Positions 7,168 to 9,073 of a stretch of DNA of 21,129 nucleotides are shown here, piece by piece (positions within the stretch are counted from its first letter, which is position 1; each line of letters opens with the position of its first letter). A program made the translations under genes and the position numbers. Under the pieces are notes generated by a model. The model did not search any database. It was not told the origin of the DNA and saw only the letters and a program-made list of their open reading frames with translations. The stretch covers positions 1-21,129 of the forward strand of contig QMMC01000064.1 of NCBI GenBank assembly GCA_003647065.1, written 5' to 3'. Source of the stretch: Deltaproteobacteria bacterium (GTDB taxonomy: Bacteria; Myxococcota_A; Polyangia; Polyangiales; B10-G4).

Positions 7168-7680
7168 TCAGCGCTCTCCGGGCTTCGGGAGGGCGTCCCG
7201 GGACTCGAAAACGGGCACCTTCGCCAGGGATCGGAGGTGATCTTTCGGCAGGCGGTGGGCCCGGGCTCCGGCGAGGACCAAGTCGAGGTACTCGCGCCGC
7301 GGAGGGATCACCTCGGCCGACCGGAACTCCGCGCGCACGACGTAGAGCCAGGCTTGGGTCTCCCCGGCGGGGACCCGCACGGTGACCGGAGCGTCTCCCC
7401 GGGAGTATCGACCCGGGTGCCCTTCCTTCTCGTCGAGGGCCAGAAGGCCGCCGTCGTCGACCTCGAGGACGACTCCGGGGAGTTCGACCCCCGCGCGCCG
7501 GTGCACATTGGCCGCGCCGCCCTTTCGCGCAGGCGACCGGTAGTTCCAGACGAGCTCCCATCCCGAGAGCAGCCCCTGGTAGGCGTTCAGCACGTTCCCG
7601 TCGCCGTGACCGCGGTCTTCCATCCACCGGCGCAGATCGGGCAGGTGCATGTTGGAGCCGTAGGCGAAGACGCGATGCAT
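7168..7680 (-). CDS. Gamma-glutamyl cyclotransferase (GGCT/C7orf24-type)
   Basis: The 170-aa product starts MHRVFAYGSNM (GGCT signature YFAYGSNL). KGGAANV matches HGGIATI of human GGCT. LDEKEGHPGRY matches LDEQEGVKSGMY, including the catalytic Glu of the LDxxEG block. Its ATG shares one nucleotide with the TGA of the upstream gene (TGATG at 7678-7682). The six-frame ORF has a 157-aa N-terminal extension, rejected because it overlaps the upstream CDS in another frame. Confidence 0.75.
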   Translation of the reverse strand: MHRVFAYGSNMHLPDLRRWMEDRGHGDGNVLNAYQGLLSGWELVWNYRSPARKGGAANVHRRAGVELPGVVLEVDDGGLLALDEKEGHPGRYSRGDAPVTVRVPAGETQAWLYVVRAEFRSAEVIPPRREYLDLVLAGARAHRLPKDHLRSLAKVPVFESRDALPKPGER

Positions 7681-8624
7681 CACGGCTCGGTGCTCGTCTC
7701 TCCTGGCGGATCCACCTCGAATCGTGCCGCCAGCCTTTGCACCCACCGCCAGTCGAGGATCTTCTCGACGCGAAAGAAGCACGCAAACGCAACGCCGGTG
7801 AGCTGGTAGACGAAGCCAATAGCCATCATCAGCAACACGCCCCAGTGGAAGCCCCAGATGAGCACGGCCCAGACCACGCCGGCTCGCCGGTGAAGGAGCG
7901 CGGCCGGGGCTCCCCACTCGATGATCAGGCTCAGCCAGGCCATGGCGGCGAAGAAGAGCGGGTACGAGAGCAGCCAGGCGCCGAGGGGCGAGTACACGCT
8001 GCCCAGCTCGATTTTGCGCACGTTGTCGTAGGCGATGTAGTTGCGGAGGTTCACCTCGCTGACGAACTCGGCGCCGCTGTTGCCGTACTTGGCGAAGGCC
8101 GCCAGCAGATAGACGGCCGTGCATACGATGGCGATGAGGCGGATGGCCCACCCGTAGCGCCCGCTCTCTTCGCCCTTCTTTACTCGGCCCGCGCGCGAAT
8201 CGAGGGAGATGGCGTCGGCCGCTGGGGCGAGGGCGAGGACGATGATCTGCAAAGTCATCATGTGGTCGACGTGCAGGATCATCCCGAAGGAGTTCGAGTA
8301 GGTGAGCACCCAGAGCTGCAGCGCGGCGAAGATCGGGCCGGTGATTCGATAGCGGTAGCCAAAGGCGAAGCAGGCTGCGAAGACGATGGTGAGTATCACC
8401 AGGGCGATGACGACCGCCGGCAGGAGAGGCCGCGGCGCGAAGGTGGCGAGGCCAACGGGCCGAAAGAAGGCCTGGTCGACGTGGGCGTAGCTCATCAGGA
8501 AGGGCGAGCGAATGATCAGGTAGATCAGCGCGTAGCCTCCGACGAGCACGCGCAGCATACCGAGGCGCTCGGCCGGGGCCGAGGGCATGAAGACCCGGTC
8601 CATGGCGCCGATCACGGCGTTCAT
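7680..8624 (-). CDS. Polytopic integral membrane protein (about 8 TM), family unassigned; possibly HTTM-like
   Basis: The 314-aa product is very hydrophobic with multiple predicted TM helices (LRVLVGGYALIYLII, LLPAVVIALVILTIVFAACFAF, IRLIAIVCTAVYLLAAF, VLLMMAIGFVYQLTGVAFACFF). Its start ATGA overlaps the upstream gene stop at 8621-8624. Its stop overlaps the GGCT start. Any HTTM-like fold is a guess from size and topology only. Confidence 0.65.
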   Translation of the reverse strand: MNAVIGAMDRVFMPSAPAERLGMLRVLVGGYALIYLIIRSPFLMSYAHVDQAFFRPVGLATFAPRPLLPAVVIALVILTIVFAACFAFGYRYRITGPIFAALQLWVLTYSNSFGMILHVDHMMTLQIIVLALAPAADAISLDSRAGRVKKGEESGRYGWAIRLIAIVCTAVYLLAAFAKYGNSGAEFVSEVNLRNYIAYDNVRKIELGSVYSPLGAWLLSYPLFFAAMAWLSLIIEWGAPAALLHRRAGVVWAVLIWGFHWGVLLMMAIGFVYQLTGVAFACFFRVEKILDWRWVQRLAARFEVDPPGETSTEP

Positions 8625-9073
8625 CGCGTCACCTCGCAGCTTCGGTGGACCTGCCGATTTCGCGGTGCGGTATCTCCGTCGAAGTAGGCGACGGTGTCGA
8701 AGGTGCTCGTCGCGAGCTCGACCGCCACGACGTCCGCCAGGTCGTCGTCATTGCTTTCGGCGACCCGGCCCGCGATCGCTGCGCAGAAGGGCTCCTGCGT
8801 ATGGGCCCCGCCGTTGATCGCCGTATTGATGATCATCATCGACTGGAGCACCTCCCAGTTGTCGCTGGCGATCATCGGCGACAGGGGCGTGCGCTCACCG
8901 TCCTCGTGGACCCCGAGGGCGTGGGGCAGGGTCAGCATCGGGTCGGGGCGCCCGGCTGAGAACATCGGGTAGTTGGACAGCGGGAAGCTGTCCACCGGGG
9001 GGTCGCGGAACGCGGGCCACAGAACGAGGCCCGTGAGCACCACGCTCACCGTGTATACGTAGGTGCGATACAT
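8621..9073 (-). CDS. Small N-terminally membrane-anchored protein (150 aa), unknown function
   Basis: MYRTYVYTVSVVLTGLVLWPAFRDPP is a single N-terminal TM helix, followed by a soluble domain of about 120 aa. It is translationally coupled (ATGA) to the downstream membrane protein. The six-frame ORF extends to 9418, but the extra 115 aa are Ser/Pro/Ala-rich and overlap the plus-strand channel gene. Confidence 0.45.
   Translation of the reverse strand: MYRTYVYTVSVVLTGLVLWPAFRDPPVDSFPLSNYPMFSAGRPDPMLTLPHALGVHEDGERTPLSPMIASDNWEVLQSMMIINTAINGGAHTQEPFCAAIAGRVAESNDDDLADVVAVELATSTFDTVAYFDGDTAPRNRQVHRSCEVTR

Follow-up and report, generated by a model that had tools for sequence, protein, structure and literature searches.

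Animal GGCX, the gamma-glutamyl carboxylase, is a vitamin-K-dependent membrane enzyme that carboxylates the gamma-carbon of peptidyl Glu. To our knowledge its chemistry, in which a quinol and O2 give a base that deprotonates an unactivated carbon, has been reported for only a handful of enzymes, namely animal GGCX and MloH. In the sdpABC operon of Bacillus subtilis, a small protein, SdpA, and an HTTM protein, SdpB, are needed to make the SdpC toxin. Here we describe g1, g2 and g3, three overlapping genes in contig QMMC01000064.1 of a metagenome-assembled 'Deltaproteobacteria' (Myxococcota-like) genome (21,129 bp, ~68% G+C, locus tags DRJ42_080xx; the window, by which we mean this whole stretch of DNA). 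The first encodes a small anchored protein, the second an HTTM protein and the third a gamma-glutamyl cyclotransferase (GGCT). We conclude, with a probability of roughly 60%, that g1 and g2 together make a two-subunit, quinol- and O2-dependent, GGCX-like membrane enzyme to which the GGCT is a co-transcribed add-on.

In GGCX, Lys218 is the catalytic base, and Asn159 and His160 (and Tyr395) bind the Glu carboxylate of the substrate (PMC12647623). MloH, from malonomycin biosynthesis, is a fused bacterial vitamin-K-dependent carboxylase, and an adjacent pair of genes encoding DUF5819 (an N-terminal transmembrane helix plus a domain) and an HTTM protein gives a confident AlphaFold 3 complex that resembles whole GGCX (bioRxiv 10.64898/2026.08.19.745780). 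In that model the transmembrane helix of the partner falls on a GGCX helix, Leu59/Phe60 touch the predicted vitamin K pocket, and a predicted interface of 3,518 Å2 marks DUF5819 as a tightly bound subunit (bioRxiv 10.64898/2026.08.19.745780).

The g1-g2 pair shares features with each of these systems. As in the DUF5819 + HTTM(-DCC1) pairs of Firmicutes, a small N-anchored protein made of a transmembrane helix and a domain is encoded next to an HTTM gene, a loop of the partner is predicted to reach the quinone pocket, and the lysine is conserved. However, Pfam DUF5819 recognised 0/46 g1-family members, g2 has no DCC1-like domain (a separate DCC1-like gene occurs only in a remote Novosphingobium version), and the third gene in the window encodes a GGCT, not a thiol-disulfide oxidoreductase. 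With SdpA/SdpB the locus has in common the plan of a two-gene unit of small protein and HTTM membrane protein, yet the SdpA/SdpB models of NCBIfam and the SdpA model of Pfam recognised neither g1 nor g2, we saw no gene for an SdpC-like toxin with g1-g2, and SdpAB is found in Firmicutes whereas g1-g2 occurs in Myxococcota, Acidimicrobiia and Chloroflexota. With human GGCX, g2 shares the HTTM fold of the membrane core, GGCX being its only relative in the Protein Data Bank (PDB), and the catalytic base, kept as invariant K179. Unlike GGCX, whose 758 aa carry the propeptide-binding luminal cap/clamp on the same chain, the 314-aa g2 ends after the membrane core, without cap/clamp domains, so that the enzyme is split here; the Glu-binding N159/H160 are not conserved; and because the system is bacterial, its cofactor would be menaquinone. 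Some of this was known already: g3 belongs to a known enzyme family, g2 is annotated 'HTTM domain-containing protein', and small anchored proteins pair with HTTM proteins in SdpAB and DUF5819-HTTM. What is new is that g1 is unrecognised by curated models and that the pair occurs in other phyla; we found no paper describing it.

Conservation of the g1-g2 pair

We scanned one genome per species, found g1 relatives in 269 species and retrieved 80 loci. In all 80, g1 is directly followed by a g2 homologue, and in 72 of the 80 the 4-nt stop/start overlap between the two genes is available. These loci come from Sorangium, Enhygromyxa, Paraliomyxa, Haliangium, Kofleriaceae, Nannocystaceae, Sandaracinus-like genomes, Acidimicrobiia and Chloroflexota/Dehalococcoidia. 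The conserved unit is the g1-g2 pair, which is widespread in Myxococcota, Acidimicrobiia and Chloroflexota and was not singled out in the first-pass annotation of the window. Its hosts are aerobic, menaquinone-using members of these groups (at least 269 species, ~1,000 sequence clusters). Some genomes carry paralogous g1 copies: in the locus from Sorangium sp. So ce1335 (L024), ~6 kb downstream of the first copy, another g1-like sequence occupies 12164-12424.

In about a third of the g1-g2 loci, in several phyla (Myxococcota, Acidimicrobiia and one Chloroflexota MAG, or metagenome-assembled genome), the gene directly next to g1 encodes a protein with a domain of ~400 aa that bears a weak likeness to squalene-hopene cyclase (SHC; an alpha/alpha toroid; E 7e-4 to 0.03), often preceded by a ~400-aa N-terminal membrane region (L010, L013, L019, L037-L041, L050, L051, L055-L057, L066, L067, L070, L073, L075-L077 and L079). 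This SHC-like protein is a candidate third component of the g1-g2 system; the window contains no copy of it. Kofleriaceae/Haliangiales-type loci have a different setting, in which a TonB-C-domain protein precedes g1-g2 and a BlaI-type repressor and a BlaR1 (peptidase M56) sensor follow it (L040, L048, L053, L054, L061-L064, L072 and L074).

A remote version of the module lies on plasmid pLA5 of Novosphingobium pentaromativorans (L095; NZ_CP009295.1, 17674-19534), in a lipopolysaccharide/capsule gene neighbourhood. There, a 151-aa hypothetical protein containing FPFMWYPMY is followed by an HTTM-like gene, interrupted by a stop and annotated as two pieces, and then by a DCC1-like (DUF393) gene, all with 4-nt overlaps. 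The g1 profile aligned to the motif of the small protein and to the hairpin that follows it (E 0.003, low probability).

Gene layout and junctions

All three genes are on the minus strand, and reading of the sequence together with the list of open reading frames bore out the three overlapping genes of the first-pass annotation. g1 lies at 8621-9073 and encodes 150 aa starting MYRTYVY; another ATG, at 9106, would give a 161-aa form. g2 (7680-8624) encodes a polytopic protein of 314 aa with an HTTM domain, which corresponds to the membrane core of the vitamin-K-dependent gamma-carboxylase. g3, which encodes the C7orf24-type GGCT, spans either 7168-7680 (170 aa from an ATG, MHRVFAYGSNM) or 7168-7683 (171 aa from a GTG).

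Both junction overlaps given earlier, ATGA at 8621-8624 and TGATG at 7678-7682, are present in the sequence. In the first, on the minus strand, the TGA of g1 overlaps the ATG of g2, and a Shine-Dalgarno-like GAGGTG (8630-8635, minus strand) lies 5 nt upstream of that ATG, within the end of g1; the same GAGGTG stands before g2 in the junction sequences of two related contigs, L088 and L081. In full the second junction reads GTGATG, of which TGATG is the version with an ATG start for g3. In L088, L081 and L091, g3 starts with GTG or TTG in a 4-nt overlap with the stop of g2 (NTGA), and L088 has no ATG at this junction; this makes the GTG at 7683 the probable homologous start in the window, giving 171 aa and a minus-strand overlap GTGA at 7680-7683. 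The genes overlap with either start. Such 4-nt overlaps are common in GC-rich operons, but that of g1/g2 is available in 72 of 80 homologous loci, and that of g2/g3 is shared by all five trio contigs read besides the window. A scan of 4200-9500 found no promoter-like sites, and terminator-like sites only at chance level, so operon boundaries cannot be set; judging from the short gaps of 27, 19 and 33 bp, the lipoprotein and dehydrogenase genes downstream may be part of the same transcript as g1-g3.

The membrane core, g2

The middle protein had been called HTTM-like as a guess, and the guess proved right. g2 matched Pfam HTTM (PF05090) over residues 18-283 with 37.8 bits against a cut-off of 27.7, and nearly all listed g2 homologues carry the same domain. 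Hydropathy and an AlphaFold 2 (AF2) model (pLDDT 91.8, pTM 0.88) agree on a polytopic protein of ~7-8 hydrophobic helices. Compared with all PDB sequences, the g2 family profile matched only GGCX (E 0.002). With the model as query, the top 15 Foldseek matches were all human GGCX (probability 1.0, 301-321 aligned columns), and those below were noise. The first 14 of the GGCX matches had a query-normalised template modelling score (TM-score) of 0.63-0.68, and the apo structure, in rank 15, scored 0.53. Normalised to the target, the TM-score was 0.33-0.35 (top 14), so that g2 spans only about a third of GGCX and part of the enzyme is therefore missing from g2. These results show that g2 is an HTTM-superfamily enzyme core. 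No transporter features were seen in g2, and its sole structural relative is an enzyme.

The catalytic lysine of GGCX is retained. K179 of g2 (codon 8088-8090, minus strand) is invariant in two family alignments and was aligned with GGCX K218 by two methods, hmmsearch and hhalign, the GGCX segment used for hhalign being 100% identical to PDB chain 13ib_A. By contrast, the residues that bind substrate Glu have no counterpart: according to the register, each alignment pairs GGCX N159/H160 with two of the four residues F113, G114, M115 and I116, and the invariant H118 of g2, although near this site, is out of register. Tyr395 belongs to a region of GGCX without a g2 counterpart. With N159/H160 unmatched in either alignment, g2 cannot be classed from its sequence as a strict gamma-glutamyl carboxylase, and because these residues are not conserved the substrate is probably not a Glu peptide of the GGCX type.

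By the positive-inside pattern, the helix of K179 has this residue at its outer (periplasmic) end; the domain of g1, with 8 K+R against 19 D+E, is acidic. Together these two observations suggest that the chemistry takes place on the outer face of the membrane, as in GGCX, with the HTTM active site probably facing the periplasm.

The small anchored protein, g1

The description of the small protein as N-anchored agrees with hydropathy and with an AF2 model (pLDDT 90.2), both of which have one N-terminal transmembrane helix; in the model it occupies residues 11-33 of the 161-aa form and is followed by a loop and a small acidic alpha/beta domain with two conserved Cys. An exhaustive profile search (E<=1e-3) gathered 1,029 clusters at 50% identity, almost all of them stand-alone proteins of ~150 aa. 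Pfam and NCBIfam assign g1 to no family: none of 106 close relatives has a Pfam domain, and none of 46 family members matched a relevant Pfam or NCBIfam model, DUF5819 and SdpA included, even at E<=10.

Directly after the transmembrane helix comes the loop motif D28-S-F-P-L-S-N-Y-P-M-F-S39 (150-aa numbering; 8957-8992, minus strand). It holds most of the invariant residues of the family, which in the 161-aa numbering are D39, F41, P42, S44, P47, M48, F49 and S50; a nearly invariant Glu, E85 in the same numbering, lies outside it. The loop probably completes the active site or the quinone pocket of g2; a motif of like kind, FPFMWYPMY, stands in the small Novosphingobium protein beside an HTTM gene, and Leu59/Phe60 of DUF5819, at the predicted vitamin K pocket, offer an analogy.

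Searches for a relative of the g1 domain were negative. Its fold had no significant match in the PDB, and the g1 profile gave only chance matches there, to eL24. Against residues 357-543 of GGCX we found neither sequence similarity, by hhalign and profile, nor fold similarity. A resemblance noticed by eye between FPLSNYPMFSAGR of g1 and LYGYSWDMMVHSR of GGCX, comprising a beta-beta-alpha-beta-beta order and a Cys in the long helix (like C450 of GGCX), was kept as a lead only. g1 may take the place of a GGCX transmembrane helix and of the region after residue 360, a correspondence that no sequence or fold comparison bears out. A search for natural g1-g2 fusions also found none. P0317 and P0213 are g1 proteins with unrelated extensions, and P0328 (411 aa, from a Kofleriaceae MAG), considered as a fusion, is an HTTM protein with an internal, near-exact duplication of ~100 residues, which is probably an assembly artefact and not a real domain duplication.

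The cyclotransferase, g3

The identification of the third gene as a genuine GGCT of the C7orf24 type was upheld. g3 matched Pfam GGACT (PF06094) with 46.8 bits and AIG2_2 (PF13772) with 38.9 bits. A PDB search with the g3 sequence alone gave significant matches to human GGCT/C7orf24 entries and to nothing else (E 4.5e-4), and a family profile built from 35 homologues matched human GGCT along its full length (residues 17-164) with E 7.7e-25. The same profile reached E 1.4e-9 with YkqA of B. subtilis and E 2.5e-4 to 0.3, in partial matches only, with GGACT/AIG2-like proteins, and in this PDB comparison it gave no match to ChaC. By these E-values g3 lies nearer to GGCT proper than to either of the two branches, GGACT/AIG2 and ChaC, that the first-pass annotation had named as the possible alternatives.

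The YGSN motif of GGCT is an N-terminal motif that forms the substrate-binding pocket. In g3 it occupies residues 7-10 (Y7-G8-S9-N10), aligns with FAYGSN of human GGCT and is nearly invariant in the 35 homologues. LDEKEG (residues 82-87) aligns with LDEQEG of the human enzyme, and alignment to 2i5t/2pn7 equates its E86 (codon 7423-7425, minus strand), invariant across the 35 homologues, with catalytic Glu98; among the human GGCT entries, PDB 3cry is the E98Q mutant. We found neither a signal peptide nor a transmembrane segment in g3. From its sequence we take g3 to be a genuine cytoplasmic C7orf24-type GGCT. It appears real and active, given the E of 7.7e-25 to human GGCT, the invariant E86 and an omega of 0.31 (below), and it would convert gamma-glutamyl-amino acids to 5-oxoproline and the amino acid. 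The likeness to human GGCT (C7orf24; PDB 2i5t, 2pn7 and 2rbh) thus covers the full-length profile alignment, YGSN and the Glu98 equivalent. Unlike the human enzyme, g3 is bacterial, has 170 aa (~25-30% identity to the human enzyme) and stands in a variable genomic context without a conserved partner.

That context argues against the proposal that the three genes form one functional module for gamma-glutamyl compounds, because the GGCT is not conserved with the pair in other genomes. None of the 80 reference loci has a GGCT within 6-kb flanks of g1-g2, tblastn at E<=10 returning only noise; the predicted three-gene order therefore held elsewhere for g1-g2 (80/80) and failed for the GGCT (0/80). 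The trio was found only in the narrow clade of the window itself, comprising the window and about five contigs: L088 (GCA_030591785.1), which is fully syntenic, L081, L091/L096, L092 and a 5.3-kb (5291-bp) JGI contig. Of these, L092 is a 1.9-kb contig that holds only the end of g2 and then g3. In gene calls for these five contigs, of which L081, L088 and L091 were also read at the junction, the g2/g3 overlap is kept throughout, with a GGCT only 58-60% identical in some of them. Sister lineages whose g1/g2 are 71-74% identical have no GGCT next to the pair, and in L082-L087, outside the clade and without GGCT, a PASTA-domain gene converges on g2.

Elsewhere, relatives of g3 keep other company. 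On a 938-kb contig of a sister genome outside the clade (L001/L089) the GGCT orthologue lies ~10 kb from g1-g2 and overlaps a Laminin_G_3 gene, and a 51%-identical GGCT sits after a peptidase M55 gene. A survey of metagenomic loci that encode g3 relatives showed the HTTM gene to be absent from 58 of 59, the exception being the L091 contig; there was no recurrent neighbour of the GGCT family among the metagenomic loci.

The history of g3 also differs from that of the pair. Sliding nucleotide identity between the window and L088 is 65-82% in 7100-7600, an island that covers the body of g3 (except its first ~80 nt) and the spacer to the next gene, and 90-100% elsewhere in the region, with a sharp break at ~7600. 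Relative to L088, dS and omega are 0.21 and 0.085 for g1, 0.18 and 0.10 for g2, and 0.71 and 0.31 for g3, so that dS of g3 is 3-4 times that of g1 and g2. The excess of dS and the sharp drop in identity indicate, at the sequence level, that the g3 allele was exchanged by recombination while g1/g2 were not, and that g3 is still under purifying selection. g3 is best seen as a lineage-specific accessory gene inserted behind g2, co-transcribed and probably translationally coupled with the pair and not an obligatory part of it. Its function appears to be independent of g1-g2. The word 'gamma-glutamyl' common to GGCT and GGCX is mostly a coincidence of names: GGCX acts on the gamma-carbon of Glu, and GGCT cleaves gamma-glutamyl amide bonds. 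We found no paper linking HTTM and cyclotransferase.

Proposed enzyme and alternative explanations

We favour a two-subunit enzyme because the coupling of g1 and g2 is conserved, g2 corresponds to the membrane core of GGCX only, and DUF5819 + HTTM provides a precedent. The deeply conserved stop/start overlap would make g1 and g2 in fixed proportion, and the two proteins would associate physically. g2 would contribute the GGCX-like helical core with the catalytic lysine K179, and g1 a transmembrane helix, the invariant loop DSFPLSxYPMFS at the membrane surface and the small periplasmic alpha/beta domain. In this predicted topology the loop probably closes the quinone/active-site pocket and the domain probably helps to select the substrate. 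The complex would bind reduced menaquinone, which the lysine would deprotonate; O2 would then turn the deprotonated quinol into a strongly basic oxygenated intermediate, and this base would deprotonate a weakly acidic C-H in a substrate of the periplasm or the membrane, leaving that substrate carboxylated or otherwise modified. Menaquinol/O2 chemistry, and carboxylation rather than mere oxygenation, are what we infer by analogy with GGCX.

Several observations weigh against this reading. The likeness of g1 to the DUF5819 and SdpA partners lies in architecture, without a family-model match, and should be read as an analogy. In sequence, GGCX and g2 can be aligned over the first half of g2 only, and for the g2 equivalents of GGCX D263, F286 and F299 two registers, one from a weak hhalign alignment (through an HWG motif) and one set by eye, conflict, so that we made no assignment. 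Many of the contigs are short, and the absence of GGCT holds for the vicinity of the pair, a more distant GGCT being possible. Finally, all the trio members that were read retain the overlap of g2 with g3, which implies that selection may favour co-expression of the GGCT within that clade.

This last point bears on a three-gene pathway, in which the membrane pair would export, import or modify a gamma-glutamylated molecule and the GGCT would remove or recycle the gamma-glutamyl group, comparable to BtrG, which takes off a gamma-glutamyl protecting group during the synthesis of butirosin. Retention of the overlap in all trio contigs, even where the GGCT is 58-60% identical, would fit such a pathway, as would the retained catalytic residues of the GGCT and the purifying selection on it. 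However, no GGCT stands beside g1-g2 in the 80 reference loci or in the nearest sister lineages, GGCT relatives occur in unrelated, non-recurrent contexts, and recombination swapped the g3 allele while g1/g2 stayed; moreover, a GGCT without a signal peptide would be separated from the predicted periplasmic HTTM active site, and g2 has no transporter features. We regard this pathway as improbable. A little less improbable, though still unlikely, is that g1-g2 acts on an isoprenoid or quinone lipid, for example by menaquinol oxygenation in lipid tailoring, sometimes with the SHC-like membrane protein. The alpha/alpha-toroid protein beside g1 in about a third of the loci, across several phyla, points in this direction, as does the loss of Glu-binding N159/H160 from g2, and a Leptospira GGCX orthologue reportedly epoxidises vitamin K without carboxylating. 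Yet the toroid protein resembles SHC only weakly (E 7e-4 to 0.03), the window lacks the SHC-like partner, and no lipid-pathway genes are consistently nearby.

The relation between g1 and g2 could also be that of substrate and enzyme, with g1 a substrate, precursor or immunity-type partner and g2 modifying a conserved Asp or Glu of g1 (D39 or E85, 161-aa numbering), in the way that SdpAB acts in SdpC maturation. GGCX and MloH are known to act on peptidyl Glu and Asp (PMC12647623; bioRxiv 10.64898/2026.08.19.745780), g1 offers an invariant Asp and a nearly invariant Glu, and we found g1 structurally similar to no part of GGCX. Nevertheless, one-to-one coupling with the enzyme, conserved in 72/80 loci, is typical of subunits and not of substrates; g1 is membrane-anchored and well folded, with an aromatic/Pro/Met loop at the membrane surface as its most conserved part; and for DUF5819, the analogue of g1, the prediction is a tightly bound subunit. 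We therefore give this explanation slightly less credence than either of the preceding ones. Taken further, the two-subunit reading would make g1-g2 a widespread vitamin-K-type strong-base enzyme with a substrate other than peptidyl Glu (a lipid or isoprenoid, or a new protein or peptide C-H), g1 a new family of specificity subunits, and the coupled GGCT in the lineage of the window an enzyme that processes a gamma-glutamyl-linked substrate or product; this fuller version is speculative, and we put it at a modest chance only.

Other genes of the window

Upstream of g1, and divergent from it, lies a gene (9105-10298, plus strand) for a GluR0-type ligand-gated K+ channel (SBP_bac_3 + Lig_chan + Ion_trans_2). 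The starts of g1 and the channel gene are 31 bp apart, and the alternative g1 start (9106) shares a single CCATGG palindrome with the channel start (9105). The channel gene is absent from sister lineages, where the divergent neighbour of g1 is a DUF5690 MFS-like gene. Downstream of g3, two paralogous putative Tat-exported lipoproteins (6574-7140 and 3732-4349, both minus strand) lie on either side of a 723-aa GSDH-like beta-propeller (4383-6554) that carries the haem-binding motif CQGCH. Both paralogues have an SRREFL signal and a VIGC lipobox and match no Pfam family; their linker is of low complexity, (GGTD)n or (TPTDSG)n, and the motifs HSH, HNH and HRH occur in the C-terminal domain of each, which is rich in His. 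Farther away, 16511-18640 (minus strand) encodes a 709-aa protein with major vault protein domains (MVP_shoulder at 98.9 bits, Vault_3 and Vault_4), a bacterial homologue of the eukaryotic vault shell protein.

Significance

If the two-subunit reading is right, a split version of a GGCX-like enzyme, with a previously unclassified partner family, would be common in several bacterial phyla. The unit to take into a hunt for the substrate is defined as g1 and g2 together, with the invariant K179 and the invariant FPLSxYPMFS loop. As a lineage-specific passenger, the GGCT is a poor guide for functional hypotheses or for the transfer of annotation. The split GGCX-like enzyme would be widespread, uncharacterised and open to experiment.

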